Positions 2,050 through 49,919 of a DNA stretch of 64,000 nt are shown here, in pieces (the stretch's first letter is position 1; every line of letters begins with the position of its first letter). The position numbers and the translations under genes were made by a program. This DNA is from a virus. The notes beneath the pieces are model-generated. The model worked only from the letters and a program-made list of their open reading frames with translations, was not told the origin of the DNA and did not search any database. The stretch is from IMG/VR virus record IMGVR_UViG_3300035664_000006, positions 31,884 through 95,883 of that record; one strand, given 5' to 3'.

Positions 2050-2128
2050 ATAAATAAAGATGTAGTTCGCGGAACGGGAATTCCCAACTACTTTAATACT
2101 TTCAAGGAGTATCAACATGAATATTTAT
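2050..2128 (+). promoter_or_regulatory. conserved endonuclease leader element, copy 1
   Basis: ATAAATA..GTAGTTCGCGGAA-N6-TTCCCAACTAC..ATACT-N7-AGTATCAAC-ATG..TATTTAT. Confidence 0.85.
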
Positions 2129-2791
2129 ACAATCTATAAATCTACAAATACATTTAATAATAAAACATATATAGGATTCACAACGGATTTCAATAAACGT
2201 AAATCCGAACATAGGTATAGATTCAAAACTGGTTCTACTAAATTTTATAACGCCATAAAAAAGTACGGCTGGCAGTCATTTGCATGGGAAATTATATATC
2301 AATCATCAGAGTATGAATACACAAAAAATGTAATGGAAACATATTTTATTAATGAATACGATTCATATGTAAATGGGTATAACTCAACTAAAGGCGGTGA
2401 CGGTATAGACTCGGAATCTGCACGGTTATTTCAACAAGATATGATTAAAAATAACACTCATATTTTTCAAGGTGACAAAAACCCAACGTACTCAAGAATA
2501 CTAAATGGAACTCATAATTTTTTAAATAATAATTTTCAACGGAATATTTCTAATAATAGAGTTAAAAATAATACACATAATTTTCAAGGAGCCCGTAATC
2601 CATCCCATCAGAGATTAATTGATGGAACACATAATTTATTAGGAGGTGAAATACAACGTAAATCATCTATAAAAAGATTACAAGATGGAACACATAATTT
2701 TATAATTCAATATACTTGCCCGTACTGTGGTAAAATTGGAAAAGGTCCTAACATGAAACGATATCACTTTGATAAGTGTAAACTGAAATAG
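2117..2791 (+). CDS. GIY-YIG homing endonuclease with C-terminal CxxC..HxxxC motif
   Basis: TIYKS..TYIGFT, GYNSTKGG, HNF repeats, CPYC..YHFDKC. Confidence 0.85.
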   Translation: MNIYTIYKSTNTFNNKTYIGFTTDFNKRKSEHRYRFKTGSTKFYNAIKKYGWQSFAWEIIYQSSEYEYTKNVMETYFINEYDSYVNGYNSTKGGDGIDSESARLFQQDMIKNNTHIFQGDKNPTYSRILNGTHNFLNNNFQRNISNNRVKNNTHNFQGARNPSHQRLIDGTHNLLGGEIQRKSSIKRLQDGTHNFIIQYTCPYCGKIGKGPNMKRYHFDKCKLK

Positions 2792-2799
2792 TTATCATA

Positions 2800-2990
2800 T
2801 GTGACCTGTATTTAATTTTGTCTATACCGCACACCCTTGCGACTTCAGCCTGTTAAGGTAGAGCTACTAAATAGAACTCTATGACTTCTATACTTTCACA
2901 TAGATAAATTAAATATCTAACTATGGTTCAATAATGGCGTACCACTCCTAATCGTTTGTACTATGTACCGGATTTAAGTTAGAATATTTA
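2800..2990 (-). ncRNA. candidate structured non-coding RNA
   Basis: TTGACA-N16-TATAAT promoter (3021-2994) with no ORF downstream; nested stems including a UACG tetraloop. Confidence 0.4.
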
Positions 2991-3024
2991 CTTATTATAG
3001 CATATTTATATGAGATGTCAAGAA

Positions 3025-3093
3025 CTATTTTCTTTTTACACGTGGTTTAATTCTTGGTTTACCGGTTAATGAGTTGTTTCTGCTTCTAGCCAT
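3025..3093 (-). CDS. 22-aa basic peptide MARSRNNSLTGKPRIKPRVKRK
   Basis: GAGGT RBS and a TTGACA..TATAAT promoter upstream. Confidence 0.55.
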   Translation of the reverse strand: MARSRNNSLTGKPRIKPRVKRK

Positions 3094-3182
3094 TGTAAAT
3101 ACCTCGTTTGTTAGTGATGGGGCTATTATACCTCAATTTCAGATGTTGTCAAGAACTTCTAAAAGAATAAATACTACTATTA

Positions 3183-3632
3183 ATGGAGAAGTTTGTGGAT
3201 ATAGGAATACCAAATTTTGATTTTTTTAGTCTTGTGCAACAATGTGGGTTTCCTATTGCATTAGCTGTGGTATGTGGATGGTTTGTTATGCAAGCAATCC
3301 AGTTAGTACTTGGGTCTGTTGTAAAATCCATTAAGAAGATGACATTTTTAATTAAATCAATGGATGGACGTGTGAAACAGATGAATGTTGATATTATTGA
3401 GATTGATAAATTGATTTCACAAGCATTGAATGTTCAATCATTGCCAGAAAAAATACATCATGAAGTAGCTGCAGTTATGAATAGTCATGATGTGAAACAA
3501 CCGATACCAACTAAACCAGTGCCTGATAATCCTAAAAAATCAATCCGTGAGAAATTTAAAAATGCGGTTGATAATGTGATTGATAAAAATGTTGATTCAA
3601 TCGTAGAAAAAGTAGAAGGAATTACAAAATGA
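3183..3632 (+). CDS. small membrane protein (GFPI motif, YvrJ/holin-like), paralogue 1
   Basis: One TM helix plus coiled coil; similar to the next two ORFs. Confidence 0.6.
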   Translation: MEKFVDIGIPNFDFFSLVQQCGFPIALAVVCGWFVMQAIQLVLGSVVKSIKKMTFLIKSMDGRVKQMNVDIIEIDKLISQALNVQSLPEKIHHEVAAVMNSHDVKQPIPTKPVPDNPKKSIREKFKNAVDNVIDKNVDSIVEKVEGITK

Positions 3633-3910
3633 GCCCAGAATATATAAAATTTTTTTCTGATACAATAACCCCGATTCTTGGTAGTTGTGTGTTAGGTGCG
3701 TTTATATTCACTGCATTAAAATTTGTACTTGGTGATGTAATTACATCTGTTAGGACATTTGCTAGTATAGTTACTGCATTGGAGAACAGAGTAAGAATAA
3801 CATCTAATGAATTGATTAAAATTGATGTTACAGTTTCTGCAAAACTGGGATTACGCCCTGATTTGGACAGAATTGCGAGATCAGTTAGAGATGATTGTAG
3901 GAGAGATTAA
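3629..3910 (+). CDS. small membrane protein, paralogue 2
   Basis: TM helix plus coiled coil; ATGA overlap. Confidence 0.6.
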   Translation: MSPEYIKFFSDTITPILGSCVLGAFIFTALKFVLGDVITSVRTFASIVTALENRVRITSNELIKIDVTVSAKLGLRPDLDRIARSVRDDCRRD

Positions 3911-4168
3911 ATGGATATAACACAAATAGCAGATATTATAAATCGTTATGGATTTCCAATAATTGCCGCAGGATATATGTTGAAAATGGTGAAATATGTT
4001 TGGGATTTTACAATAAATGAGATTAATCCGGTACTGGTAGATGCAAATAAAGAATTAATTTCACTAATTGATAAAATTCGTCTAGTTGATGCGGATTGCC
4101 TTCGAATTACTGCAAAATTGAATACAGTTCTTCAAATGCGAGAAAGTGAACAAAAAAATGATAAATAA
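3911..4168 (+). CDS. small membrane protein (GFPI motif), paralogue 3
   Basis: YGFPIIAAG motif. Confidence 0.6.
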   Translation: MDITQIADIINRYGFPIIAAGYMLKMVKYVWDFTINEINPVLVDANKELISLIDKIRLVDADCLRITAKLNTVLQMRESEQKNDK

Positions 4169-4239
4169 GAATGTAGTTCGCGGAATGGGGATTCCCAACT
4201 ACTTTAATACTTTCAAGGAGTATCAACATGAATATTTAT
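4161..4239 (+). promoter_or_regulatory. conserved endonuclease leader element, copy 2
   Basis: Near-identical to 2050-2128. Confidence 0.85.
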
Positions 4240-5211
4240 CAACATCAATGTGTGTTTGCTGATAATTTAGCAACACAACACTATTATTCTATAATAGAAA
4301 ATGCAATTCAACAACCTCGTAAAAAATATAGAAAAACAAACCCTCTATATCAATATTACGAAGAGCATCACGTACTGCCAAAATCAATATTTCCAGAATA
4401 TAAAAAATCATTATGGAACAAAGTTTTATTGACAGCAGAAGAACATTATAATTGTCATAAATTATTACTAGAAATGACAGATGGTAAAAATAGATCAAAA
4501 ATGGTTTGTGCATTATGGTATATGACATCTGCAAGAACACTAGACATGCATAGAAAAATACAGTCTGGTGAAGAATTTGAACAAGCAAAAATAAATTGGT
4601 CTGAATATATGTCAGAATTAAAATTAGGTAAAAAATGTTCTCAGGAAACAAAAGATAAAATATCCGCTTCTAATAAAGGTCGAAAACCATCTGCAGCTGC
4701 AATAGAAGCAGTAATAAAATATAATACTGGAAGAAAGAGATGCCCGATTTCTGTTGAGAAATCAAGATTGGCACAACTTGGTAATACTAATGTAAAAGGA
4801 AGAAAATGTTGGACGAACGGTATAGAAGATACATTTTCAAACGACTGCCCTGGTGAAGGATGGCATATAGGAAAAACGTATAAGCACTCTGAACTCACCA
4901 AACGAAAAATTGGAGAAGCCGGTAAAGGTAGAGTGATATCTGATGAAACAAGAAAGAAGATGAGTGAAAAAAGTAAAGGTATTAAAAAGGCTGATGATTT
5001 TGGTGCTAAAATAAGTATAGCCAAAAAAGGAAAGAAAACAAACCAACAAGAAATAATGGGGAGAAAATATGCTTCAATGAATGATGAAGAATTTAATTCT
5101 TATATTTCTAAAATGAAATCATTATTAGCAAAAAACAGAGCAACTAATCTTCGTACAAAATGGATAAATATTGTAGAAGACCTTAATAGGGACAGTAATG
5201 AGAGTAAGTGA
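4228..5211 (+). CDS. HNH homing endonuclease with NUMOD3-like repeats
   Basis: EEHHVLPKS..LTAEEHYNCHKLL; SxETKxKIS repeats. Confidence 0.8.
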   Translation: MNIYQHQCVFADNLATQHYYSIIENAIQQPRKKYRKTNPLYQYYEEHHVLPKSIFPEYKKSLWNKVLLTAEEHYNCHKLLLEMTDGKNRSKMVCALWYMTSARTLDMHRKIQSGEEFEQAKINWSEYMSELKLGKKCSQETKDKISASNKGRKPSAAAIEAVIKYNTGRKRCPISVEKSRLAQLGNTNVKGRKCWTNGIEDTFSNDCPGEGWHIGKTYKHSELTKRKIGEAGKGRVISDETRKKMSEKSKGIKKADDFGAKISIAKKGKKTNQQEIMGRKYASMNDEEFNSYISKMKSLLAKNRATNLRTKWINIVEDLNRDSNESK

Positions 5212-5494
5212 ATTTATAAATGAAGATTGGCAAAAAGTAAATAAAAAAGATAAAACTGACGGCATGAGTAAAAAGGCAGTTAGCACATATCGTAATGAAC
5301 ATCCAGGTTCAAAATTACAAACAGCGGTTACTACAAAACCTAGTAAGTTGAAGAAAGATAGTAAAGATGCTAACAGGCGTAAAAGTTTTTGTGCAAGAAT
5401 GGGTGGAATGAAAAAAGCAAATGCCAGTGCTGAAACAAAGAGAGACCCTGATAGTCCAATCAATAAAGCATTGCGTAGATGGAATTGTGAATAA
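5198..5494 (+). CDS. conserved phage protein, putative internal head protein
   Basis: RRKSFCARMGG..ALRRWNC; N-terminus MRVSEFINE. Confidence 0.65.
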   Translation: MRVSEFINEDWQKVNKKDKTDGMSKKAVSTYRNEHPGSKLQTAVTTKPSKLKKDSKDANRRKSFCARMGGMKKANASAETKRDPDSPINKALRRWNCE

Positions 5495-5883
5495 TGAAAG
5501 TGAGTGAAGTAATTTCTGATAAAACCTCAGATATGGCTATAAATGAATTAGTAAGATATGTTAATGAAAAGTGGAATAAAGTTGGCTTACAGGTTGATTT
5601 TGGCACACATTTTGGTCAACGGATAAATGACGAACGTAATAATCCACCGATTGACGTTAATGAAGTTGCTAAATTATTTGACAAATTATTTGTCAATGCG
5701 GGTAAAGCAATTTCAAAATTGCCGATTGGATTTAAATCAGTGATGAATGACCCAGATACACATATCAATGTTATGTTTAAGATAGTAGAAGCAGGTGGAC
5801 ATAAAGTAGTTATGTTAACTTCTATTATTAGAAAATCTAAATTTAGATCAGATACAAAAGTATTTAGAGAAGAATTGCCGTAG
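5494..5883 (+). CDS. hypothetical protein, putative internal head protein
   Basis: N-terminus MKVSEVISD; coupled to the previous gene. Confidence 0.6.
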   Translation: MKVSEVISDKTSDMAINELVRYVNEKWNKVGLQVDFGTHFGQRINDERNNPPIDVNEVAKLFDKLFVNAGKAISKLPIGFKSVMNDPDTHINVMFKIVEAGGHKVVMLTSIIRKSKFRSDTKVFREELP

Positions 5884-5966
5884 GACCGTGACTTTGTTAC
5901 GAAGGCGATAGGTAGCTACTACCTTTGGAACGCTGAATCGCTACCAGCGTTCCATAAAGTGTAGTG

Positions 5967-6125
5967 TTATATTTTCAAATGTGTTTTACATTTAGCTGCT
6001 AGTGCATCCCAAACGTATATTATACATATTTCTACAAAGCTTATGATGGATACACCTAAAATTATTAATAAAAGGAATATTGAACATAGTATTGATAATG
6101 GGGTAAAGCTTCTTCTGGTTCTCAT
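5967..6125 (-). CDS. small membrane protein
   Basis: AGGA RBS after the cyclase stop; hydrophobic helix. Confidence 0.4.
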   Translation of the reverse strand: MRTRRSFTPLSILCSIFLLLIILGVSIISFVEICIIYVWDALAAKCKTHLKI

Positions 6126-6133
6126 AATGTATC

Positions 6134-8191
6134 CTACTTGGTTGTAGCTCTGTAAATTCCATCCCATGAAAGTGGTAATTTAGTTTTTTTCATTTGTTCA
6201 CATCTTTCAATCCATAACTCGTAGCTATGTTCCATTTGGCCATCAAATTCACTCATTAATTCTTTAGACATTTTAATAGCTTGGTCAAACTGTTGAGAAC
6301 GATATGCTAATAACATGAAGTTATGTTTTGTTCTTGCTTCTTCGTATGAATCCAAATTTACATTATCGGTTAACAGTGGTGTATAAATTTGTAATCCAAC
6401 TGTTTTACCTTTCACTGCAATATTATCAAGTTCTAATGTAAAAATTTCATCTTTAACTAACGCATTTGTATTAGGTCCAATAATAAGTAATACACCATAA
6501 GATTTAGTTTGACCTTCTAATCTAGCAGCAGTGCTAACTGAATCACCTAACACATCGTATCCAAATTTATCTTTAGAACCAATATTACCAATTAGTGTTT
6601 CACCGGTATTAACCCCAGCCCCCATACCAACTGGTGGACGGCCACTAGCAGTAAGTTCAATATTGAAATCTTCGATTGCTTTAATCATTTGTTGAGCAGT
6701 TTTAACTGCAGTTACGGCATGATTAGGATCATCTAATGGCGCACCGTGAACATGTAAACTTGCATCGCCGATGAATTTAATCAATGTACCGTCATTCTTT
6801 AATACTGGTACACTCAACGCAGTCATATAATCATTCATGATTTGTGTAAGACCTTCTACATCATCACCGAACGATTCTCCTAGGGTTGTAAATCCACGTA
6901 AATCTGTCATGACAATTGAAAGTTCTTTACGTTCTCCACCTAGTTTAATAAGTTCTGGGTTCTTTTGTAATTTTTCTACGATAGTAGGGTTAACATATGA
7001 GCCAAATTGTTTTTTAATCTGCATTTTTTGTAAGAACTCACTTACAAATTTCACACCATATGCATGTAATGCAACTAGTATAATACCACTTACAAATGCA
7101 GTAATATCAAACAAGTACAAGTATTCGCTAAACACATATTGGCTACCAAACACTGATCCAACGGTTAATACAACAACGGCACCTAACCCAACATAAATCC
7201 ATCTAGTTAAGAATAATAGCAGAATGCCGATGACTAGTAAAGATAAGATTTCAACGCCATCTGCATAATCTGGACGTTGTATTACTACGTTATTCATTAT
7301 AGTACCAATAACTGCTGCTTGTGCTTCATGTGGGAATACCGAACCTTTTGCAGTTGGAATAGGATTACCGATACCTGCAGCAGTCGGGCCAACGATAACT
7401 ATTGAACCGTTGAGATCATCAGGTATATTAGATAAACTTATACTGGTTGACGATTGGCTCCAATCTATCCAAACACGACCTAGTGGATCAGTCGTAATTG
7501 GACCGAACTTTGGAATTCTCATTTTCTCAACACCAAATTCATTTAGTTTTACTTGAAAAGTTGAATCACCACTCGATGCTAACGCAACTGTTTCTAAACT
7601 TAATGATGGATATAGTTTATCACCAACTGAAACTACTAATGGCATCCTGCGATTAACACCATCAATTTCGGGTAGTGTATTAACTGTACCAACCCCGGCT
7701 ACAGATTCTTCTATGACTGGAATATTAGCAATAATACCTGGATATTGAATGACACGATCAATAAATTCTGGTCCTAATACTACTGACCCTGTGATTTTAG
7801 GTGTATTTTTAGAAAGATCAGCCGGGATATTAGGGAGAATAACAGGATAACTTGATAAGGCATTCGCGAATGCCTTATCACCACCTTGGCGATCAGTTTC
7901 TGGCATTAGGACATTGAATACCACTAATCCGGCATTATGCTCATACAGGTTTTGGATTATATCTGCATAGATGGTTCTCTTGAATGGCCATTGACCATAC
8001 TTGTCTAACGATGACTCGTCTATATTAATTGTATAGATTGAATTTTCAGTGGTTGGCTTTGATGTAATTAACGTATCAAAATATCGTAATCTTATACTTT
8101 CTATAAATGATGGATCGGATACCCGTACACCAACAATTAAAAATAACGTTAATAATGCAGTCCATGGACTTAAAAGAATTTTTTTAATCAT
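6134..8191 (-). CDS. CHASE2-domain class III adenylate/guanylate cyclase
   Basis: GQWPFKR CHASE2 motif, three TM helices, TDLRGFT..KFIGDA..GDSVSTAARLEG catalytic motifs. Confidence 0.92.
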   Translation of the reverse strand: MIKKILLSPWTALLTLFLIVGVRVSDPSFIESIRLRYFDTLITSKPTTENSIYTINIDESSLDKYGQWPFKRTIYADIIQNLYEHNAGLVVFNVLMPETDRQGGDKAFANALSSYPVILPNIPADLSKNTPKITGSVVLGPEFIDRVIQYPGIIANIPVIEESVAGVGTVNTLPEIDGVNRRMPLVVSVGDKLYPSLSLETVALASSGDSTFQVKLNEFGVEKMRIPKFGPITTDPLGRVWIDWSQSSTSISLSNIPDDLNGSIVIVGPTAAGIGNPIPTAKGSVFPHEAQAAVIGTIMNNVVIQRPDYADGVEILSLLVIGILLLFLTRWIYVGLGAVVVLTVGSVFGSQYVFSEYLYLFDITAFVSGIILVALHAYGVKFVSEFLQKMQIKKQFGSYVNPTIVEKLQKNPELIKLGGERKELSIVMTDLRGFTTLGESFGDDVEGLTQIMNDYMTALSVPVLKNDGTLIKFIGDASLHVHGAPLDDPNHAVTAVKTAQQMIKAIEDFNIELTASGRPPVGMGAGVNTGETLIGNIGSKDKFGYDVLGDSVSTAARLEGQTKSYGVLLIIGPNTNALVKDEIFTLELDNIAVKGKTVGLQIYTPLLTDNVNLDSYEEARTKHNFMLLAYRSQQFDQAIKMSKELMSEFDGQMEHSYELWIERCEQMKKTKLPLSWDGIYRATTK

Positions 8192-9063
8192 GATATTTTA
8201 TCTATAATAAATGATGATATTGCATCAGCAACATTGGTATTGCAATACTTGTCAAACCCACTAAATCCTGGATTTGAATTAGCTTCACATACTCTAAACC
8301 CTCGATCATCAAAAAGCAGATCAATCCCTGCAATCGTAAGATTTAATACTTCAGCCGTTTTAAGTGCTATTTCTTCAATTTCAGATGATACGGGAAATGA
8401 TTCACCAGTACCACCATTGGTTATATTAGCTCTGAAGTCATCTTCCGGTGCAGTTCGTTTCATTGCACCTAATACTTTACCACCTACTACAAATACTCTT
8501 AAATCTTCACCGGGTCTATGTGCTAGATATTCTTGGGCAATAAGAGTTTTTTCATTATGTACAGCATCTACAAATTCAATAAATTTTATATATTCTTGTT
8601 TAGTTTTACAAAGATAAACACCTTCGCCGAAGCTACCAACTACTACCTTTACTACACATGGAAATCCGATAGTTTTTTCAACTAAATCTGATCTTGAGGT
8701 AGATTTAACTATCATGGTATGTGGAACTGCGATGCCAGCATTCGCTAATATTTCACTTGATTGGAATTTATCTTGTACTAAGTTAATACTTTCACTACCA
8801 TTATAACACGGAATTCCTTCTAATTCAAAGTATCTAATTACAGATAATTCAGCACGTGATATTCCTGCACCAAGTCGTACTAATACTGCTCTTGGTCTAG
8901 CTAATCGTTCCCCATCATAAAATATTCCATGATTTAGAATAACATCGAATTTATTGAAGTAGCACACTCTGATATGAACATCCTTATCTGCAAAACTTTG
9001 TATAAGTTTTGAGGTTTCATAGTCAAATTCTTTTCTTTGTTTGGTTAAAATTAAAACGGTCAT
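8188..9063 (-). CDS. rimK: RimK-family ATP-grasp alpha-L-glutamate ligase
   Basis: DKF, GSFGEGV, QEY, DLRVFVVGG, FRANITNGG, EANSNPG. Confidence 0.88.
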   Translation of the reverse strand: MTVLILTKQRKEFDYETSKLIQSFADKDVHIRVCYFNKFDVILNHGIFYDGERLARPRAVLVRLGAGISRAELSVIRYFELEGIPCYNGSESINLVQDKFQSSEILANAGIAVPHTMIVKSTSRSDLVEKTIGFPCVVKVVVGSFGEGVYLCKTKQEYIKFIEFVDAVHNEKTLIAQEYLAHRPGEDLRVFVVGGKVLGAMKRTAPEDDFRANITNGGTGESFPVSSEIEEIALKTAEVLNLTIAGIDLLFDDRGFRVCEANSNPGFSGFDKYCNTNVADAISSFIIDKIS

Positions 9064-9095
9064 AATACCTTAAATATGTTTCAATTATTTATCGG

Positions 9096-10211
9096 TTATT
9101 GACCTTGCTGTATAGTAATCTTGGGACATCCACCCGTAGTAGCACAATTAAAATTAATTGAATATGATTGTTGAGAACTACCACTTTGAGATAAGCTTAA
9201 ATCAGTTGGTTGACCAGATAATGAAATCTTGCCCATATGATTACCAGATCCTTGTTGTAAAGTGTCAATGTGCTTATTATCACCACTTATATCGAGTTCT
9301 AAATATTGATTGCCGGAATCTTTTTGTTGTAGTGATAATGTATTGTTGTTTCCGTTTACATGTGTGAAAATACCTTTAGAACCACCGGTATTCTGTTGTA
9401 ATAGTGAAGCAGTATTATTATTTCCTAAAATACTTAATTCCGTATAATTTACTGAAGCATTCGACGTTGATGTTTCACTTATTGAAATTGTATTATTAGA
9501 ACCGTTGCCATAATATTCTATATAATTGTTTTTAGACCCTGATTGAGTTATTGTTATAGTATTAGAATTACCAAGTTGTTCTATATAAACTTGACTATCG
9601 GACGTTGCTCTATTGATAAATGATTGAACATTCGCAACATTAAATGAATTTGCATTAAAATTAGCAGATGAACCGCCACAGCACAATGTTGGTACAAAAA
9701 AACTTGAAGAAGTAGCTAGGTTGTTAGATGGTACTACGACTATTCCATTACCAATATTCCAATCTAACTGTAGTACCGCACCACCACCGTTTTCATACCA
9801 CCATACATCTATGGCATAAACTTGTCCAGCAGTCAATGTAATGGTACCAGAACCATTAAAGTTATTAGGTCCCTGTTCTACCCAGTTATTAATTACAACT
9901 GTGTTATCAATGGACATATAAAATCCATCGTCACTTCGATCATAAAAAGTTATGGTTTTACTACCAGATGAACCAGGCCACAAAATACTTCCAGTGAAAT
10001 GAATTATTACACCATCAGCTCTTCCCGAACCCATAACAACTCCTCCTCCCCAGTCATAATTTAATGAGGTAGATACACCAGACGATAAAATTGCGCCATT
10101 TGTATTCCTGGATGGAGTTGCGCCACCGGCAGCATATACAATATAATCTAAACCAGCCACTCCATCGGCATATACGTTTATACAAAATAATAACAACAGA
10201 ATAAATTTCAT
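9096..10211 (-). CDS. secreted PA14-domain protein with curlin-like repeats
   Basis: Signal peptide, SDDG..YENGGGA PA14 motifs, QxGxxN repeats. Confidence 0.8.
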   Translation of the reverse strand: MKFILLLLFCINVYADGVAGLDYIVYAAGGATPSRNTNGAILSSGVSTSLNYDWGGGVVMGSGRADGVIIHFTGSILWPGSSGSKTITFYDRSDDGFYMSIDNTVVINNWVEQGPNNFNGSGTITLTAGQVYAIDVWWYENGGGAVLQLDWNIGNGIVVVPSNNLATSSSFFVPTLCCGGSSANFNANSFNVANVQSFINRATSDSQVYIEQLGNSNTITITQSGSKNNYIEYYGNGSNNTISISETSTSNASVNYTELSILGNNNTASLLQQNTGGSKGIFTHVNGNNNTLSLQQKDSGNQYLELDISGDNKHIDTLQQGSGNHMGKISLSGQPTDLSLSQSGSSQQSYSINFNCATTGGCPKITIQQGQ

Positions 10212-11302: not shown

Positions 11303-11304
11303 AA

Positions 11305-12099
11305 TTATCTTGCAATTGCGGATTGTGCATTCACTATTGTGCTTGAACTTGATCTAACTGTAATGGTATTGTTATCACCAGTTGTTTTCAAATCAATTGT
11401 AGTATCATTTGACCCTTGTTGTTGGGTAGTAATCGCATTATAATTACCAGCGATGACTTCTTTTAAATAATGTCCAGTTGCACCGGCTACATCACTTTGT
11501 TCAACATTTAATAAGTTATTATTACCTGTAATGCTTAAGAGAGAAGTACCATTTGTACTAGATAAATTTTCAGTAACTTGGTTGGTTCCTCCGGTAATGG
11601 TGAGTGTACTAGTAATATAGTTTCCAATTATATTTTGCATCACGATGTTAGTATTGCCGGTGATAGTTTCAGTTACTTCAACATGTTGATTATCTGTGGA
11701 ATTTGTATCACCAATAACTAATCTATTTTTATTATCATTACCAGATATGGTGTTAGTATATTTATTGTTCCCACCTTTAATACTATATTGCGCCCAGTTA
11801 TTATTACCATGATGTGTCATTGATAAAATATTATTACTACCATTAATAGTTGCATAATTTGATGCACTGGCTGGATCTGGTGTATTAGTAGTTATGTTAG
11901 TGGTTTGATCCGTTGTGATAGTACCAGAAATACCACCGACTGTATTGGTTCCACCTACTTGTTCTATTGTAATAGTATTTGAATTTCCTATTTGTTCTAT
12001 GAAGACACTGTTAGGACCGGTAGCAGTTCCAACAGCCATGGTTAAATTAGAAAACAATATCACTGATGATATTAATAAATAATTCAATAATTGTTTCAT
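11305..12099 (-). CDS. curlin-like repeat protein (CsgA/CsgB-like)
   Basis: Signal peptide; IEQIGNSN and ITGxxN repeats; next to csgG. Confidence 0.75.
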   Translation of the reverse strand: MKQLLNYLLISSVILFSNLTMAVGTATGPNSVFIEQIGNSNTITIEQVGGTNTVGGISGTITTDQTTNITTNTPDPASASNYATINGSNNILSMTHHGNNNWAQYSIKGGNNKYTNTISGNDNKNRLVIGDTNSTDNQHVEVTETITGNTNIVMQNIIGNYITSTLTITGGTNQVTENLSSTNGTSLLSITGNNNLLNVEQSDVAGATGHYLKEVIAGNYNAITTQQQGSNDTTIDLKTTGDNNTITVRSSSSTIVNAQSAIAR

Positions 12100-12113
12100 T
12101 TCAATATGCTCCT

Positions 12114-12914: not shown

Positions 12915-12916
12915 AA

Positions 12917-13396: not shown

Positions 13397-13452
13397 GAAT
13401 ATCCCCCCCCTTAAGTTATTTAAAAAGAGGGGTATTATTATAATACTAGTAG

Positions 13453-14656: not shown

Positions 14657-14716
14657 ATTTTTCCTTATAATAATCATATATTATATCACTGTGCTGGAAT
14701 AGTGTCAAGAAAAAAT

Positions 14717-14795
14717 ATAAATAAAGATGTAGTTCACGGAATTGGCGTTCCTAACTACTTTAATACTGTAAAGGAGTATCAACAATGATATTTAT
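14717..14795 (+). promoter_or_regulatory. conserved endonuclease leader element, copy 3
   Basis: GTAGTTCACGGAA-TTGGCG-TTCCTAACTAC, with a compensatory A-T pair. Confidence 0.85.
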
Positions 14796-15576
14796 AGAAA
14801 ATAAGTATACCATATGGTATAATAAAATTATTAATTCCTCAAAAACTCGTAAATTATCAAATAATGTATATACAGAAAGACATCACATTATACCAAGAAG
14901 TGTTGGAGGGTCTAATGATGACAGTAATATAGCAATTCTTACTGCCCGTGAGCATTTTTTATGCCATTTATTATTAGTTAAAATGACTTCTAATAAAGAA
15001 CGGGTTAAGATGATATATGCTTCTTGGAGAATGGTTTGCACATCTAACAGATATCAAGTAAGACATAAAACAACATCACGGATTTATCAAAAAATTAGAG
15101 AAGATTATATCAATGTTGTTAAAAATAGAAAAATGACTGATGAAACAAAACAAAAATTAAGAGAAGCTAACCTAGGTAAAAAGCATAGTGATGAAAGTAA
15201 AGCAAAAATGTCCAAATCTAGAGCTGGTATACTATTAAATGAAATACACGGGATAGAAAAAGCAAATAAGATTAGGGAAAAACGTTCTGCTTCATTAAAA
15301 GGTAAAAATGCTGGAAAAACTCCTAGATTAGGTGCAAAATTAACAGAAGAATCCAAGCAGAAAATATCCGATAAAGCAAAACTCCGTAAAAAAGAATGCG
15401 AATATTGTAAAAATCAGTATTCTCTTTTAACTTACAATCGTTATCATGGTAAAAATTGTAAATTATCTGGGAATACTGATATTAGATTAATGAAAACTTG
15501 TGTATATTGTGATAAAACTATGGACCCAGCAAATTATGCAAGATATCATGGTGATAAGTGTAAATTAAAACATTAA
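14785..15576 (+). CDS. HNH homing endonuclease with NUMOD3 repeats and two C-terminal Zn-finger-like motifs
   Basis: ERHHIIPRSVGGSN..LTAREHFLCH; CxYC..RYHGxxC twice. Confidence 0.85.
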   Translation: MIFIENKYTIWYNKIINSSKTRKLSNNVYTERHHIIPRSVGGSNDDSNIAILTAREHFLCHLLLVKMTSNKERVKMIYASWRMVCTSNRYQVRHKTTSRIYQKIREDYINVVKNRKMTDETKQKLREANLGKKHSDESKAKMSKSRAGILLNEIHGIEKANKIREKRSASLKGKNAGKTPRLGAKLTEESKQKISDKAKLRKKECEYCKNQYSLLTYNRYHGKNCKLSGNTDIRLMKTCVYCDKTMDPANYARYHGDKCKLKH

Positions 15577-15875: not shown

Positions 15876-15897
15876 AATGGATTTCCTGTGTAAGTGA

Positions 15898-38304: not shown

Positions 38305-38962
38305 TTATGATTTACGTTGAATTGCTCTAGCTTTTTTTGTGGATTCAGATAATTTTTGCCTCGTTTCTTCAGACATTGGTGGCCTGTTCTTAGCAGCATT
38401 GCTCATTTTTATACGAGTTTCGTCTGATATGCCTTTAACACCTTTGTTCCAAGGTTCTCTTCCTATATTACTTTTTGACAAATTTGAAATATTATTTGCA
38501 ACTCGTGGATCCGATTTGGTCAATCCTTTATTCCAAGGTGTTTGAACTCCTTTTAATCCTTTATTCCAAGGTGGAATTCCTTTAGAGGAAATACTCTTTT
38601 TTTGTATTGCTTCTGCTGATATTTTTTTGCCTTTATGAGCCATACCAATTTTTTTTCCTAGTTTCTTCTGATAAATTTGCAGTCCCATCTCCCCCATCTG
38701 TTTTATTAAGTAGAATACCGGTTCCAATATCTTTTCGTCCATACCATCTAATTAAACGGCGTTCTAATGCGAATGCTCCGAGTTCTGTTAAATTTGATTC
38801 ACATATAATAATATAAGAATGATCTGATGGAACTGGAATGCGGGTAGCATGTTTATTCCATGCTCGATTGCCTTTACCTTTTCCGATATAATACGGGGTT
38901 CCTGCAGATGCAGTTGATGATGAAATTTTACGCATATACGCATAAACATAATAAATACACAT
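38305..38962 (-). pseudogene. GIY-YIG/NUMOD3 homing endonuclease split by one extra A in an A8 run
   Basis: YVYAY..YYIGKG in one frame, PWNKG repeats in the next; removing one A at 38649-38656 joins them. Confidence 0.75.
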
Positions 38963-39029
38963 GTTGATACTCCTTTACAGTATTAAAGTAGTTGGGAACT
39001 CCAATTCCGCGAACTACATATTATTCTAT
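38951..39029 (-). promoter_or_regulatory. conserved endonuclease leader element, copy 4
   Basis: Reverse strand GTAGTTCGCGGAA-TTGGAG-TTCCCAACTAC..AGGAGTATCAACATG. Confidence 0.85.
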
Positions 39030-45563: not shown

Positions 45564-47165
45564 CTAATATATTTCACGCCATTGCATACTAACACCAACA
45601 TTCGTTGATTGTGCACCTAAATTTGTGGCAACTACCAGGAATATCTCAGAATCCGTACTGTCAAAGTTTTGCACAATATAATTCTTTTTTGCAGATGATG
45701 GGATGTTACTAGCCGGTGCGCCTCCTGCTTTTTGACTACCTTGGGTAGATGCACCAACAAATCCACTATCCATTTCTTGCCCATCTGTCCATGCGGTAGC
45801 AGTTACGTTGTATTGAATACCTGATTCATTATGCACATCTACCCATGAATTACCTGTTAGAAATGCTTGTGCTGGTAATTTTATCAATTGCCATTTAATA
45901 TTGGCACCATCGCTGAATACATTTAAGTTACCCATGCGAACAATCATTCTATTTGAATATGTATGAAACGTATTTTTTAATCTAATTGCCATAACTGGAG
46001 AAGTTACACCAGCTGCTATTGTTTTTAAGGTCGGTGTAGTTGTAGACCAATCTTGACCTGCTTCAACATAGCCACCTTCACTGAATACTGTTGAACATAT
46101 TTGATCCATTGAACCGCCTGTGGTAGTACCAATATTTCTTATTTCGCATCTAACGGGAAGATTTGGATTACTCATGTAAACAGTTGGTAACATATTGCTA
46201 TGTAAGAATTCGTGTACATAAACTGCATTGCCATTATGTGCAAACCCAACACGAACCCTACCAACGCCCAGCCACTGGAAATCAATCACTACTAATTGTG
46301 TATTAAGTATGTTCAACCATGAAACAGTGTCTAAATTCCATTGTGATTGAGTTTTTCTGACTTCAATGGGAGCGCCAGAAACAAAACTTCTTATTACCCA
46401 TGATAAAGTCCCATCGCCTGCTTGCTCAAAGTAAATTCCATCATTATCATCAAAATACCCAGTTCGTTTAACTACGTTCGGTGTAGCAGCTCCAAAATTT
46501 ATACTACTAAAAATTACTTGAGATTTACCAGGCATATAATGATGATAAAATTTTGTTTGATGGATAATAAAACTAGATGGATTAGAAGTTGTAGATAATG
46601 TACAACATGCTTTATTTTTTACAAATTGAATAGCACCACCATTTCCAGCATAGTCGATAAATGCAGGATCTATACCATATAAGTGTTTATAATCACCTAA
46701 AGTAAAAGGTTCGGAAACTCGTTGTCTACCAAACGCATCAATTGCGCCAAACCCCATTGAAACTGGAATAGGATTTCCACTATCATTTTTTATTTCAACT
46801 TCTGGTAAACTGCTAATTGAAACACTGCCATCCACTGTAATAGAACCACCATTATCACTAATTGCCCATGGGGTAGTACCTTGTTTAACAGTCCAATCAC
46901 CATCTTGCTGAACTTTTCCTATAACTGCAGAACTCGTTTTTAATGTTACTTGCCCATTAGTACCGATTGATACTGGTGCAGAATGATTTTCATCCCATAC
47001 ATTCCCTAATGTATCGATTTGAATTCTAACCTTATCAACCAGAACATCGCCTTGTAATGATATTCCATCAACATGTGTGCGAATAACTGGTTCACCAGAC
47101 TCATTATATTGCATAGCTTTATGCAGATTTTTTAAATTATTATCATTTGGATGTATATATGTCAT
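45564..47165 (-). CDS. putative virion structural protein
   Basis: DAFGRQRVSEP, YMPGKSQ, IDFQWLGVGRVRVGF. Confidence 0.65.
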   Translation of the reverse strand: MTYIHPNDNNLKNLHKAMQYNESGEPVIRTHVDGISLQGDVLVDKVRIQIDTLGNVWDENHSAPVSIGTNGQVTLKTSSAVIGKVQQDGDWTVKQGTTPWAISDNGGSITVDGSVSISSLPEVEIKNDSGNPIPVSMGFGAIDAFGRQRVSEPFTLGDYKHLYGIDPAFIDYAGNGGAIQFVKNKACCTLSTTSNPSSFIIHQTKFYHHYMPGKSQVIFSSINFGAATPNVVKRTGYFDDNDGIYFEQAGDGTLSWVIRSFVSGAPIEVRKTQSQWNLDTVSWLNILNTQLVVIDFQWLGVGRVRVGFAHNGNAVYVHEFLHSNMLPTVYMSNPNLPVRCEIRNIGTTTGGSMDQICSTVFSEGGYVEAGQDWSTTTPTLKTIAAGVTSPVMAIRLKNTFHTYSNRMIVRMGNLNVFSDGANIKWQLIKLPAQAFLTGNSWVDVHNESGIQYNVTATAWTDGQEMDSGFVGASTQGSQKAGGAPASNIPSSAKKNYIVQNFDSTDSEIFLVVATNLGAQSTNVGVSMQWREIY

Positions 47166-47166
47166 C

Positions 47167-47416: not shown

Positions 47417-48616
47417 ATGATTAACAAAGAACCATTCAATAAACTTATTAATGATTTAAAAGAAACTGGAAAATACAGAGTTTTCAATGACATACTACGT
47501 GAGCAAGGTAAATTCCCAAATGCAATTTGGTATGGCCCATATGCCATCAAGAATATTGTCAATTGGTGTAGTAATGATTATCTTGGGATGGGGCAGCATA
47601 AAGTAGTATTAGATGCAATGAGGACAGCATTAGATATGACAGGTGCTGGTTCTGGTGGTACTAGAAATATTTCAGGAACTAGTCATTATCATGTCGCATT
47701 GGAACATGAATTAGCATCATTACATAAAAAAGAAAAAGCACTATTGTTCTCATCTGCATATGTAGCAAATGAATGGAGTTTAATTGCATTAAGTAAGATT
47801 ATTCCAAATATCGAGTTTATTAGTGATAGCAAGAACCATAATAGTTTAATAGTTGGTATGAGCCATAGCAGAGCACCTAAACAAATATTCAAGCATAATG
47901 ATTTAATTGAGTTAGAAAACTGTTTAAAACAGGCAGTTAAAAATGAAACTATTCCTTGTATTGTATTTGAAAGTGTATACAGTATGGAAGGTGATGTCAG
48001 TCCAATTAAAGAAATATGTGATTTAGCTGACAAATATAATGCCATCACATACTGTGATGAAGTTCATGCGGTAGGAGTTCGAGGATTTACAGGTGCGGGT
48101 GTGTTAGAAGAACTAGGTTTACAAGAACGAGTTGATATTGTTAATGGTACTCTTGGCAAAGCATTTGGTGTACAAGGTGGTTATATCGCAGGGGATTCTA
48201 TAGTAATTGATGCTATTCGAAGCATTGCGAATGGATTCATCTTTAGTACATCATTAAGTCCAGTGATTGTCGCCGGGGCATTAGCTGCAGTTAAATTTTC
48301 AAAAGCTCATAATGAATTAAGAGAAAAACACCAAGAACGAGCTAGAAAATTAAAAAAACGGATGAAGGAATCGGGAATACCAGTAATGGACTCAACTACA
48401 CATATCGTACCGGTGTTGATCGGGAATGCACAGAAAGCCCGAGAAATTAGTGATAGATTATTAAATGATTATAGTATTTACGTACAAGCAATTAATTCTC
48501 CAACAGTAGATGTTGGCACTGAACGATTGCGATTTGCACCTACCCCAAATCATACGGATGCTATGATAGCTGATTTAGTAACAGCGTTGTCTATCATATT
48601 AAAAAGTTATAATTAG
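47417..48616 (+). CDS. hemA: 5-aminolevulinate synthase
   Basis: [43 protein letters not shown]. Confidence 0.95.
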
Positions 48617-48617
48617 A

Positions 48618-48696
48618 ATAAATAAAGGCGTAGTTCGCGGAATGGGGATTCCCAACTACACTAATGTCAACGGAGGACATCAGCATGAGTATTTAT
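48618..48696 (+). promoter_or_regulatory. conserved endonuclease leader element, copy 5
   Basis: Hairpin 1 same as copy 2; hairpin 2 covaried to ATGTC/GACAT. Confidence 0.85.
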
Positions 48697-49428
48697 GATA
48701 ATACCATCACACCAACTTATCTTTATATTAAACAACATTCAATTACTGGCTTAAAATATTTTGGTAAAACTACAAATTCAAACCCATTAAAATACTTAGG
48801 ATCTGGAACATATTGGAAAAAACATATCAGAAAACATGGTGAAGAATATGTAGAAACCATCTGGATGTCAGAACCATATACTAATAAAGAAATATTAACT
48901 GAAGTTGCATTAAAATTCTCAATTGAAAATAATATTGTAGAATCTAACGAATGGGCTAATTTAATATTAGAAAATGGATTAGATGGTGGAACTCACGGGG
49001 CTATAGTGTCATCGGAAACTAGAAATAAAATTTCTGCATCAAATAGTCGTAGACGATTATCTGATGCAACCAAGCAAAAGATTAAAAATTCTAAACTAAA
49101 TATTTCAGATGAAACACGAGCAAAGATCGGTGCTGCCAGTAAAAATAGAATAGCAAGTGCTGAAACAAGAAAAAAGCTTTCAATTACTAGCACGGGGAGA
49201 ATGCATACTGATGAAACAAAAGAAAAAATAAGACAGATTAATTTAGGAAGAAAGCATACCGCTGAGACTATTCATAAGTTAAAAAACAGAGTAGTTACAA
49301 CTGAAACAAAGCAAAAAATGTCATTGATCCGAAAAAACCATCCGATTGTTAAATGTCCGCACTGTGATGTATCTGGAAAGGGTGGAAATATGACACGATA
49401 TCATTTTAATAATTGTAAAAATAAATAG
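48685..49428 (+). CDS. GIY-YIG (Seg-like) homing endonuclease with NUMOD3 repeats and Zn-finger-like tail
   Basis: YLYIKQH..KYFGKT..YLGSG; CPHC..RYHFNNC; start refined by GGAGG RBS. Confidence 0.85.
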   Translation: MSIYDNTITPTYLYIKQHSITGLKYFGKTTNSNPLKYLGSGTYWKKHIRKHGEEYVETIWMSEPYTNKEILTEVALKFSIENNIVESNEWANLILENGLDGGTHGAIVSSETRNKISASNSRRRLSDATKQKIKNSKLNISDETRAKIGAASKNRIASAETRKKLSITSTGRMHTDETKEKIRQINLGRKHTAETIHKLKNRVVTTETKQKMSLIRKNHPIVKCPHCDVSGKGGNMTRYHFNNCKNK

Positions 49429-49429
49429 T

Positions 49430-49555
49430 TTCCCAACAGTTGAGGTAGGAGCAGAACGATTAAGATTTGCTCCTACACCATTGCATGATGATGGTATGAT
49501 TGAAGATTTGATTAATGCATTAAAAACAATTATTGTACCGCATTCTGTTGTTTAG
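49430..49555 (+). pseudogene. displaced second copy of the hemA 3' end
   Basis: [31 protein letters not shown] versus hem[32 protein letters not shown]. Confidence 0.85.
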
Positions 49556-49763
49556 TTAATTGTTCAATTTTCTGTTGAAGTTGTTGTATTTCATCATCTT
49601 GACGATGATCATCTGCTTCAGCATGTTGTAATGATCTAGCAAACAAAAGTAACAGTGCTTCAATTTCATCTTCGGTGTCCGAGTAATGAGATTTTGCAAA
49701 TTTTTTAAGTTTATCAAGTAATAACGATGATTCATTAAGCTGTGTAATTTCATGCATTTTCAT
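49530..49763 (-). CDS. hypothetical coiled-coil protein
   Basis: N-terminus MKMHEITQLNE. Confidence 0.55.
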   Translation of the reverse strand: MKMHEITQLNESSLLLDKLKKFAKSHYSDTEDEIEALLLLFARSLQHAEADDHRQDDEIQQLQQKIEQLTKQQNAVQ

Positions 49764-49840
49764 AAATAATTCCCTCAAGACCGCATCCAAATTTTGCTAA
49801 TACGTAATAAATGTAGTATAATATTTTCATAGTAATATTT

Positions 49841-49919
49841 ATAAATAATTATGTAGATCGCGGAATTGGCGTTCCCATCTACTTTAATACTGTAAAGGAG
49901 TATCAACATGGATATTTAT
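49841..49919 (+). promoter_or_regulatory. conserved endonuclease leader element, copy 6
   Basis: Compensatory stem GTAGAT/ATCTAC. Confidence 0.85.

Follow-up and report, generated by a model that had tools for sequence, protein, structure and literature searches.

A shared leader before unrelated nuclease genes

Why should homing-endonuclease genes (HEGs) of unrelated families share one and the same leader? The first-pass annotation of the stretch of DNA analysed here (the window, 64,000 nucleotides in all), which comes from an uncultured lake phage, described an ~80-nt element with two hairpins, H1 and H2, immediately before six such genes, and proposed that it is a shared structured RNA module. 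We searched the window for the pattern GTAGWTCRCGGAA-N5-7-TTCCYAWCTAC. It matches at 2062, 4173, 14729, 39017 (minus strand), 48630 and 49853, and not once in 100 shuffles of the window. An unfiltered search with a covariance model of the cassette, R1, recovers exactly six cassettes, at 79–92 bits, and these are the six first noticed (table 1). A seventh lies outside the window in the same 96-kb viral record (G000:C1:11357–11433, covariance model). The three compensatory changes named in the annotation are real: GTAGAT/ATCTAC in copy 6, G-C to A-T in copy 3 and ATGTC/GACAT in copy 5. ATAAATA and TATTTAT flank every copy, the exception being copy 4, where the 5' box is degenerate (ATAGAAT).

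Table 1. Features of the window. Cassette copies are assigned to the strand opposite their endonuclease gene, that of the predicted antisense unit; boxes are predicted late promoters.
Feature	Position	Strand	Details	Basis
Copy 1	2050..2128	-	sense box 2050-2056; H1 2062-2091; H2 2093-2115; ATG 2117; inverted box TATTTAT 2122-2128	R1 92.5 bits, minus strand
Copy 1, predicted antisense RNA	~2116 down to ~2050-2056	-		sequence, fold
Copy 2	4161..4239	-	sense box 4161-4167; H1 4173-4202; ATG 4228; inverted box 4233-4239	R1 90.3 bits
Copy 3	14717..14795	-	sense box 14717-14723; H1 14729-14758; ATG 14785; inverted box 14789-14795	R1 85.8 bits
Copy 4	38951..39029	+	gene on minus strand; sense box ATAGAAT 39029-39023, degenerate; H1 39017-38988; ATG 38962; inverted box 38957-38951, intact	R1 79.4 bits, plus strand
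Copy 5	48618..48696	-	sense box 48618-48624; H1 48630-48659; H2 of ATGTC/GACAT type; ATG 48685; inverted box 48690-48696	R1 82.1 bits
Copy 6	49841..49919	-	sense box 49841-49847; H1 49853-49882, compensated GTAGAT/ATCTAC stem; ATG 49908; inverted box 49913-49919	R1 88.4 bits
Homing endonuclease 1	2117..2791	+	classic GIY-YIG	Pfam PF01541, 23.9 bits
Homing endonuclease 2	4228..5211	+	HNH-class N-terminus + NUMOD3	NUMOD3 by Pfam; N-terminal BLAST cluster shared with ORF3
Homing endonuclease 3	14785..15576	+	HNH + NUMOD3	Pfam; relative L018 = PHROG 655
Homing endonuclease 4	38633..38962	-	truncated to 109-aa nuclease domain, YVYAYLR..YYIGKG class	tblastn of full-length class members; class by hhalign, PHROG 314
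Homing endonuclease 5	48685..49428	+	GIY-YIG-like (LYIKQHS..LKYFGKT class) + NUMOD3	NUMOD3 by Pfam; hhalign against classic GIY-YIG profile 86%, E 5e-6
Homing endonuclease 6	49908..50837	+	classic GIY-YIG + NUMOD3	Pfam PF01541 34.6 bits, PF07460 40.4 bits
Perfect sigma70 promoter	2013..2040	-	outward, adjoining copy 1	12/12 consensus with TG
Sigma70-type promoter	14680..14708	-	TTGACA-N17-TATAAT; outward, just beyond copy 3	sequence

How widespread is the cassette? It occurs on hundreds of IMG/VR contigs; the matches listed from two scans alone comprise over 116 and over 120 stretches, respectively. Three large records, two of them at least 92% complete and one 70%, hold 13, 13 and 9 copies, and 13 is the maximum for a complete jumbo genome. 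No match to the cassette was found among GenBank phages. With the whole window at the gathering threshold, Rfam 15 matched only tmRNA and tRNA and no cassette; with three copies and their flanks, at E up to 10, nothing matched on the cassette. These searches agree with the annotation, which had not recognised a described motif.

The cargo does consist, as had been claimed, of endonucleases of unrelated families. ORF1 and ORF6 are GIY-YIG enzymes (Pfam) and ORF5 is GIY-YIG-like (hhalign); ORF3 is an HNH enzyme, at 21.0 bits against a Pfam cut-off of 21.4, and ORF2 clusters with it. Relatives in the class of ORF4 match the homing-endonuclease PHROG 314, and in ORF4 itself weak C-terminal matches carry on in another frame (tblastn). 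The start of ORF5 is corrected from 48664 to the ATG at 48685, after the Shine-Dalgarno. Across the family, five HEG classes account for 161 of the 176 downstream ORFs, and more than 90% of copies head GIY-YIG-like or HNH homing-endonuclease genes.

The strand that carries the fold

If the cassette encodes a structured RNA, from which of its strands is that RNA made? We aligned 112 diverse copies on the strand opposite the HEG. Both hairpins covary heavily in this larger sample, with many more compensations: double changes occur at 15 of the 19 pairs (407 cells), and the covariation score of 0.599 compares with 0.222 for shuffled alignments and at most 0.10 for slid ones. Paired cells make up 97.3% on the opposite strand versus 86.5% on the gene strand. 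The non-Watson–Crick pairs of the opposite strand are 246 G·U and 17 A·C; the same 246 pairs are A·C mismatches on the gene strand. A separate parse of the outer stem of H1 counted 653 Watson–Crick pairs, 24 gene-strand A·C and 0 gene-strand G·U; its counts at the H1 bulge pair were G-C 80, A·C 20, A-T 13 and G·T 0. In every one of 131 copies H2 has its lower minimum free energy on the opposite strand (mean −6.8 versus −2.5 kcal/mol), the helix being a weak 5 bp on the gene strand and a continuous 8–9 bp on the other. That of H1 is lower on the opposite strand in 75 copies versus 37. Folding gives two hairpins and a free tail on the opposite strand of all six window copies. Taken by themselves, these six differ little in folding energy between the two strands; the strand assignment comes from the family-wide sample. 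Pointing to the gene strand instead is the fifth inner pair of H1, with U·G in 39 of 94 copies, though these bases may belong to the loop.

Might the hairpins nevertheless act in the 5'UTR of the HEG mRNA, controlling its translation or stability, with H1 stabilising the 5' end and H2 partly masking the Shine-Dalgarno? The gene strand also yields two hairpins in six of six window copies; gene-strand H2 shows double changes in six of seven pairs; a 5-nt spacer puts the predicted late transcript start at the first base of H1; and the Shine-Dalgarno falls within the loop, for the most part, and the 3' arm of H2. On the other hand, the gene-strand helices contain just 17 G·U pairs but 246 A·C mismatches, which break them, gene-strand H2 is the poorer in every copy, and such a leader leaves unexplained the frame-independent TATTTA box described below. 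We regard this reading as quite unlikely.

The proposal of a shared structured module thus survives in part. The evidence supports a portable, covarying module that is specific to HEGs, common to unrelated nuclease families and outside the described Rfam families. The mRNA leader as the selected RNA is not supported, since G·U pairs are kept only on the opposite strand and H2 is better there throughout. It is the strand opposite the gene that bears the conserved fold, and a small antisense RNA is therefore most likely made from it.

Two facing putative late-promoter boxes

From where would an antisense RNA start? The motif NATAAATA, which has been described as the cyanomyovirus late promoter (PMC2984593), lies 18–25 nt before many structural genes of the window, in which the virion protein at 45564–47165 is closest to Kyanoviridae. 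Its core is present in inverted form within codons 2–4 of all six copies (a motif-level match), and the sense and inverted boxes each lie 5 nt before a G. TATTTA starts at ATG+3, +4 and +5 in 17, 16 and 64 of 107 copies. It thus occupies all three reading frames (MYL, MIF, MxIY), and it stays 4–5 nt after CAGC even in a sub-family whose ATG is shifted 9 nt upstream. Because the box occurs in three frames yet keeps about 5 nt from the hairpin, we read it as an inverted NATAAATA late promoter. The base preceding the inverted TAAATA core is not restricted to A or C, as that of the sense box is, and it varies freely in MYL-type genes; the inverted promoter may therefore be weaker, or the 6-mer alone may matter.

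The annotation had offered two explanations for the flanking boxes, convergent late promoters or an outer stem. A frame-independent inverted box at fixed spacing makes the former the better reading. The outer stem fared worse, showing no informative covariation: six of its pairs never vary, and at the seventh 36 of 94 copies fail to pair and no more than three compensations occur.

That stem would be central to a T4-type late-promoter bypass, in which read-through RNA would pair ATAAATA with UAUUUAU of codons 2–4 and close the initiation region, while late transcripts would lack the 5' arm and be translated. This is the control mode of I-TevI, I-TevII, I-TevIII, segB and Aeh1 mobE (PMC2988022). 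The two boxes are exact complements and box 2 is kept at the nucleotide level in three frames. Read-through RNA is likely at copies 2, 4 and 5, since stops of upstream ORFs overlap box 1 there (the TGA of ORF 3911–4168 at copy 2, the TAA of ORF 47417–48616 at copy 5). However, besides the lack of informative covariation, 6–7 A-U pairs closing a 70-nt multiloop would be thermodynamically marginal, and inner helices optimised for the other strand are left unexplained. A bypass of this kind could coexist with an antisense RNA, but we consider it very unlikely.

A predicted antisense RNA

What would the two facing boxes produce? On the gene strand, the late promoter N-ATAAATA would act 5 nt before the purine that opens H1, so the late HEG mRNA would begin with a 55-nt 5'UTR. 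On the opposite strand, TATTTA(T) in codons 2–4 would serve as the same late core inverted, with its start at the G 5 nt on. The resulting RNA of 60–67 nt would be the exact complement of the 55-nt HEG 5'UTR. Its predicted fold comprises hairpin H2', an 8–9-bp helix whose loop bears the anti-Shine-Dalgarno CUCCUU, and hairpin H1', of 6 bp, a G-C pair between bulged G's and then 4–5 bp. The predicted 3' end is a U-rich tail, the complement of the sense promoter; H1' followed by this tail would form a terminator-like end. In 82 of 112 copies the 10 nt that follow H1' include at least six T; the gene-strand counterpart has 3–4. H1' and its tail escaped a simple terminator scan, because bulges interrupt the helix.

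We think it rather probable that one of the two late promoters serves the HEG mRNA and the other a 60–67-nt cis-antisense RNA that represses synthesis of the nuclease. That both boxes fire, where the RNAs start and end, and the repression itself are predictions from sequence. By base-pairing across the site of translation initiation on the HEG mRNA, the predicted RNA would keep the nuclease low, and by analogy with IS10 RNA-OUT it probably represses translation. At copy 4 the HEG is broken and the sense box decayed; the predicted antisense unit is still intact.

Insertion and outward promoters

How does the cassette affect the genes beside which it lands? The endonuclease-free relatives L220, L221 and L225 wholly lack window 14645–15592; copy 3 is thus an insertion carrying an outward promoter. 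Located inside the inserted segment, this promoter points at the 185-aa host gene 14120–14677. Synteny shows ORF3 to be inserted in the reverse orientation, separating a ClpS-like gene from the next gene downstream; these two host genes are translationally coupled in relatives without the ORF3 endonuclease. Copies 1 and 7 have the same arrangement, and the promoter adjoining copy 1 was assigned to a permuted tmRNA gene (tmRNA by Rfam). In the family, an outward TTGACA-N16-18-TATAAT lies 7–14 nt beyond box 1 in 20 of 192 unique copies, against a background of 1.5%.

Outward promoters in excess of background, one of them within an insert that separates coupled host genes and two others arranged alike, would suit a relay serving the host: an opposite-strand terminator and promoter would halt antisense transcription through the insert, restart the neighbouring gene and limit polar damage. 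Yet some 90% of copies have no outward promoter, and copies 2, 4 and 5 are co-oriented with their neighbours, right after a stop codon. Moreover, a terminator needs no H2', which has the anti-Shine-Dalgarno loop and covaries as strongly as H1'. Such a relay is unlikely to be what the cassette is mainly for.

Comparison with known systems

Does the antisense reading have precedents? RNA-OUT of IS10/Tn10 is a 69-nt cis-antisense RNA whose promoter lies inside the 5' end of the mobile-element gene and faces that gene's promoter; complementary to the translation-initiation region, it blocks ribosome binding, acts in trans and represses more strongly as copy number rises (PMC5006887). The cassette likewise has an opposite-strand promoter motif within the first codons of its target gene, and its predicted antisense RNA, like regulators of this type, has its own selected secondary structure. 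RNA-OUT differs in controlling a transposase, with a single stem-loop and sigma70 promoters, whereas the cassette has two hairpins, predicted late promoters of the gp55 type, overlap with the whole 55-nt 5'UTR and unrelated nuclease families; the two have no sequence relation. The sar RNA of phage P22, ~69 nt long, is an antisense RNA whose promoter faces the ant promoter and which covers the ant ribosome-binding site. Unlike the cassette, sar occupies a single locus, regulates an antirepressor and is not portable.

Among HEGs, I-TevI, I-TevII, I-TevIII, segB and mobE of T-even phages and Aeh1 restrain a toxic nuclease by a late promoter directly upstream and an RNA structure at the ribosome-binding site (PMC2988022). 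The cassette, too, joins a predicted late promoter to RNA structure at the HEG ribosome-binding site. In the I-TevI type each gene has a hairpin of its own that is stable on the mRNA, with the late promoter inside or after its 5' arm; in the cassette both hairpins come after the promoter, the mRNA forms but a weak hairpin over the Shine-Dalgarno, selection on the fold acts on the other strand, and at least five HEG classes share the module. Only an ATAAATA/TATTTAT outer pairing, without covariation, would fit the promoter geometry of that type, as H1 and H2 follow the promoter. Gene-strand H2, at its mean of −2.5 kcal/mol and with the Shine-Dalgarno mostly in the loop, is not the stable sequestering hairpin of the I-TevI type.

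Cyanophage S-PM2, a T4-like cyanomyovirus, has CfrI, an experimentally detected antisense RNA opposite a HEG, ~225 nt long and spanning the HEG and psbA (PMC2984593). The predicted RNA also lies opposite a HEG, and among cultured phages the T4-like cyanomyoviruses are the closest to this one. CfrI occupies a single locus, unlike the repeated cassette with its much shorter predicted RNA; in the S-PM2 genome (NC_006820) model R1 has no match at E up to 0.01. The PeSLs of T4-like phages are short, repeated, portable modules of promoter and hairpin, as the cassette is. They lie at gene boundaries in variable regions, and modular shuffling has been proposed for them (PMC2839356, PMC4122927). A PeSL pairs an early sigma70 promoter with a terminator, and the ORFs beside it are varied and not nucleases. 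The cassette instead has two predicted late promoters, extends through the start codon into the first codons and stands almost only before HEGs. With late-type promoters, HEG cargo in 161 of 176 cases and an adjacent sigma70 promoter in only 20 of 192, it is not a PeSL.

What might such a unit mean for the phage? Since 7–13 similar copies share a genome, the predicted antisense RNA of any one copy might also reach the others in trans, much like the multicopy inhibition of IS10. The best explanation of the cassette is that it is a compact, two-faced expression unit travelling with the free-standing HEGs of T4-like freshwater phages related to cyanomyoviruses.

The cassette and its copies

Direct reading and alignment give the same order for all six cassette copies in the window: the sense late-promoter box ATAAATA (box 1), a 5-nt spacer, a first hairpin (H1), one T, a second hairpin (H2), CA(A/G)C, ATG and an inverted box, TATTTAT. 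Box 1 of copy 4, which the first-pass annotation had called degenerate, indeed reads ATAGAAT. Throughout, H1 has the form GTAG(T/A)T-C(G/A)C-GGAA-N6-TTCC-(C/T)-A(A/T)CTAC, the Shine–Dalgarno sits in the loop and 3′ arm of H2, and TATTTAT falls within codons 2–4. The annotation's count of six holds: the H1 pattern matches exactly six places in the window, with no match in 100 shuffles, and an unfiltered covariance model search recovers the same six. The model also places a seventh copy, heading an HNH-type ORF, elsewhere in the 95.9-kb IMG/VR record (G000; window at bases 31884–95883; CheckV completeness 26%). The H2 regions are identical among copies 3, 4 and 6, and likewise between copies 1 and 2. 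At copies 2, 4 and 5 the stop codon of the upstream ORF lies inside box 1.

Coordinates of features in the window and of related loci
Feature	Position	Strand	Remarks
tRNA, anticodon CUA	712-786	-	amber-suppressor type; ARAGORN label tRNA-Pyl
tmRNA gene, permuted (two-piece type)	1651-2044	-	Rfam RF04321, 92.5 bits
tmRNA gene promoter	2040-2013	-	perfect TTGACA-N16-TATAAT with TG
Perfect sigma70 promoter	3021-2994	-	beyond 3′ end of endonuclease 1, opposite strand; overlaps a TATAAATA
Perfect sigma70 promoter	3152-3125	-	beyond 3′ end of endonuclease 1, opposite strand; precedes a 22-aa very basic ORF (MARSRNNSLTGKPRIKPRVKRK)
Stretch without megablast match in GenBank phages	5000-14000		
Copy 3 insert	14645-15592		
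ClpS-like adaptor	15573-15911	-	
DnaK/Hsp70 homologue	16414-18303	-	64-68% identity to bacterial DnaK (tblastn)
Ribonucleotide reductase small subunit	24229-25341	-	
Virion protein	45564-47165		nearest T4-like cyanomyoviruses; S-RIM32 50%
Site of endonuclease 5, replaced in a related contig	48541-49758		
Leader	49840-49920		
Peak of contig depth	49848-49991		
Cassette copy 7	G000:C1:11357-11433		
S-SRM01 endonuclease locus (L233)	NC_070963 51180-51300		

How widespread is the cassette? Scanning IMG/VR with the H1 pattern gave at least 116 stretches, and a second scan at least 120. The second was blind to H1, because it was anchored only on TAAATA, TCTAA, CAGC and TATTTA; H1 was non-canonical in 95 of the 151 unique matches listed. 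Two records of 360 kb and 333 kb (both at least 92% complete) hold 13 copies each, a 259-kb record (70% complete) holds nine, and a complete 524-kb record holds two. The 24 sequencing runs that contain the window stretch are all lake-water DNA metagenomes. As first supposed, this is not a described Rfam family: the cassette had no Rfam match even at E up to 10. Nor did blastn with two cassette variants match GenBank phage records, and our literature search found no description of it.

Among cultured phages, Synechococcus phage S-SRM01 has the nearest homologue of the class-0 endonuclease (the classes being N-terminal clusters), and the covariance model R1 finds no match there. The S-SRM01 gene, without a cassette, is preceded by a GC-rich hairpin between two ATAAATA boxes, perhaps a control module of another kind.

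The endonuclease cargo

Pfam assigns the endonucleases behind copies 1 and 6 (ORF1 and ORF6) to GIY-YIG and ORF3 to HNH with NUMOD3, finds NUMOD3 alone in ORF2 and ORF5, and makes no call for ORF4. ORF4 is cut to 109 aa, and its weak C-terminal matches lie in another frame. Against the classic GIY-YIG profile, the class of ORF5 matches with a probability of 86%, while that of ORF4, which matches PHROG 314, does so weakly (26%).

We examined 176 ORFs downstream of cassettes across the whole sample. Single-linkage clustering of whole proteins was abandoned, all classes having merged via common C-terminal NUMOD3 modules; for this reason the N-terminal 110 residues were clustered. Five classes take in 161 of the 176 ORFs: YVYAYLR..YYIGKG (50 members), HNH (49), LYVKTH..LKYLG (39), PYTYLI..YYGV (15) and classic GIY-YIG (8). 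Since GIY-YIG and HNH are unrelated folds, the annotation's description of a cargo drawn from unrelated families is borne out. Representatives of nearly all classes are named homing endonucleases by PHROGs and Pfam; the cassette is therefore specific to homing endonucleases. NUMOD3-type DNA-binding modules occur at the C-termini of unrelated nuclease domains (GIY-YIG-like, HNH and HNH_3). The merging of whole proteins suggests that domain shuffling may be frequent behind the common 5′ cassette.

Which strand folds

If both hairpins are conserved, on which strand do they fold? On the gene strand, 94 copies with canonical H1 show double changes in six of the seven H2 pairs; the closing pair of H2 is C-G in 82 and U-A in 12, with no mismatches. 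Among the matches listed by the H1-blind scan, the outer stem of H1 read on the gene strand comprises 653 Watson–Crick pairs, 24 A·C and no G·U, and the bulge pair is G-C in 80, A·C in 20, A-T in 13 and never G·T.

The opposite strand was assessed with an alignment (A3) of 112 diverse copies and 19 pairs. Its cells are Watson–Crick in 1821 cases, G·U in 246, A·C in 17 and other in 41, so that 97.3% are paired, as against 86.5% for the same columns on the gene strand. Double changes occur at 15 of the 19 pairs (407 cells), with all 11 pairs of H1′ (H1 on the strand opposite the endonuclease gene) compensated, and the covariation score is 0.599 compared with 0.222 when shuffled and at most 0.10 with partners slid. 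Folding of H2 favours the opposite strand in all 131 unique copies (mean −6.8 versus −2.5 kcal/mol) and that of H1 in 75 copies versus 37. Two A·C ‘internal-loop’ positions of the gene-strand H2 are G·U on the opposite strand, one of them invariant (112/112), and the interrupted stem of 2 + 5 bp thereby becomes a single helix of 8–9 bp.

The covariation first proposed is thus present, as compensated pairing in both hairpins, while its assignment to an mRNA leader is not sustained. A structured leader on the gene strand would account for the double changes in H2; given the better pairing opposite, we consider it quite improbable. Strand-biased mutation is an unlikely cause of the asymmetry, which tracks gene orientation (copy 4 is encoded on the other DNA strand) and includes the fixed G·U positions. 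K-turn and tRNA-like readings of H1 were dropped by eye because tandem G·A pairs are absent.

Boxes and predicted transcripts

What, then, is the inverted box? In 107 copies TATTTA starts at +5 relative to the ATG in 64, at +4 in 16 and at +3 in 17, and its three frames yield M-x-I-Y, M-I-F and M-Y-L. In every frame type it keeps a distance of 4–5 nt 3′ of CAGC. In one sub-family (L033, L059, L060, L099, L111, L026) the ATG is displaced 9 nt upstream, into the 3′ arm of H2; the spacing from CAGC to TATTTA is unchanged, the box not having shifted with the ATG. Proteins of this sub-family begin M-S-S-x-N-I-Y, and their H2 loop is 20–25 nt. From the three frames, the constant spacing and the unmoved box we conclude that TATTTA is a signal at the nucleotide level, linked to the fold and not to the protein.

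The reverse complement of TATTTA is the late-promoter core. The published cyanomyovirus late promoter is NATAAATA (PMC2984593), and NATAAATA lies 18–25 nt ahead of many structural-gene starts in the window. In T4 the sequence TATAAATA is read by gp55, gp33 and gp45. Each box is located 5 nt ahead of a G, which on the gene strand is the first base of H1 and on the opposite strand the base immediately before H2′; the two predicted transcripts would consequently overlap over exactly the 55-nt 5′UTR. An alternative function for the boxes, first offered as an outer stem, is to pair with one another in a bypass of the T4 style. As an RNA helix ATAAATA/TATTTAT fares badly, six of its pairs never varying informatively and the seventh being unpaired in 36 of 94 copies. 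Such a bypass might coexist with antisense control, and we think it very improbable.

On the opposite strand, H1′ is followed by sequence complementary to the spacer and sense box (consensus ACUUUUAUUUAU). This tail has six or more T among its first ten bases in 82 of 112 copies, compared with three to four at the matching gene-strand place. In the predicted RNA, H1′ and its tail are a hairpin plus U-tract, though a simple terminator scan did not flag H1′. The opposite-strand element could also be read as a terminator and promoter relay serving the host genome; we hold this relay to be unlikely.

Insertions and outward promoters

Three related sequences (L220, L221 and L225) align on both sides of the copy 3 locus without the insert, their ClpS-like gene being followed directly by a 185-aa gene. 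The insert, of about 950 bp, carries the reverse-oriented endonuclease together with the cassette and an outward promoter, and it separates this translationally coupled pair. The endonuclease stop overlaps the ClpS-like stop, and the outward promoter (TTGACA-N17-TATAAT) points at the displaced 185-aa gene. An outward promoter also adjoins copy 7, and another, with a 12/12 consensus match, adjoins copy 1 and drives the tmRNA gene. Overall, an outward sigma70 promoter stands beside 20 of 192 unique copies, compared with a background of 1.5%.

The tmRNA gene is back-to-back with copy 1. The two sigma70 promoters beyond endonuclease 1 are predicted to transcribe antisense into it; the one at 3021–2994 is followed by some 200 nt without an ORF, possibly a small RNA. 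The tRNA-CUA could indicate TAG recoding in part of the phage genes; read with code 11, the window's ORFs show nothing unusual, and about 90% is coding.

Short Logan contigs of four runs (X13, X15, X18, X22) were placed on the window. Depth peaks at the leader (table), at 5–8 times its flanks, and loose contig ends match sequence flanking copies 2, 3 and 4 on the upstream side: the leader is an assembly-breaking repeat in lake metagenomes. In a related contig (X18), 677 different letters stand at the endonuclease 5 site, which is another insert. No clean allele without endonuclease was recovered among these contigs.

Within G000 the leaders have a mean identity of 83% whatever the endonuclease class, versus 73% between genomes (G000 against G001 and G002), and five of the seven carry the TTTAATACT..AGTATCAAC type of H2, a weak sign of possible gene conversion or intragenomic spread. 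Concerted evolution of leaders was set aside, identities of 0.75 within and 0.73 between genomes (permutation p 0.016) being too weak.

Discussion

The best-supported reading, and in our judgement a probable one, is that the cassette consists of facing late promoters and a cis-antisense RNA that restrains the endonuclease. Promoter 1 would give the endonuclease mRNA and the inverted promoter a predicted antisense RNA of 60–67 nt, displaying an anti-Shine–Dalgarno in the H2′ loop and ending at H1′. This RNA would pair with the mRNA and so prevent initiation or lead to decay. Copy 4, with its endonuclease broken and its sense box decayed but its antisense unit intact, fits this picture. Action in trans is plausible, as there are 7–13 copies per genome and H2 regions are identical between copies.

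More tentatively, the cassette might be a self-contained mobility kit and a genome-wide governor. As a kit, it would equip any nuclease ORF with a late promoter, a start codon and an antisense brake; some copies would also bring an outward early promoter to mend the interrupted operon. As a governor, since the leaders of the 7–13 copies are near-identical, its antisense RNAs would work in trans, and every homing endonuclease of the phage, irrespective of nuclease family, would be subject to one common ceiling: multicopy inhibition for homing endonucleases.

Known controls of homing endonucleases are gene-specific hairpins, autorepression and coupling. Endonucleases of T-even phages and Aeh1 have gene-specific RBS hairpins that a late promoter bypasses (PMC2988022); as to two defining features of that type, the gene-strand hairpin at the Shine–Dalgarno is weak in the cassette, and the promoter precedes both hairpins, the geometry of a bypass being confined to ATAAATA/TATTTAT pairing. 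PeSLs are likewise portable promoter–hairpin modules, but with early promoters and no tie to endonucleases. In the cyanomyovirus S-PM2, an antisense RNA that runs opposite an endonuclease gene, CfrI, has been detected; it differs in its length, about 225 nt, and R1 has no match in the S-PM2 genome. The logic proposed here is that of IS10 RNA-OUT, a 69-nt trans-acting RNA that causes multicopy inhibition (PMC5006887).

We conclude that the cassette is a real, widespread and undescribed module of promoters and a predicted RNA, a putative cis-antisense control attached to homing endonucleases. It also accounts for the similar first codons (M-x-I-Y, M-I-F and M-Y-L) of unrelated nucleases. Comprising two putative promoters of 8 bp and an overlap of 55 nt, it lends itself to direct testing, and in metagenomes it can mark homing endonuclease genes and the borders of their insertions. 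In the T4 field, the means by which free-standing homing endonucleases are prevented from damaging their phage are named as an open area (PMC2988022). If our reading is true, one portable antisense module, found in hundreds of uncultured lake phages with up to 13 copies in a genome, would represent a new solution to regulation that GIY-YIG-like and HNH enzymes have in common, and also a new structured RNA family.
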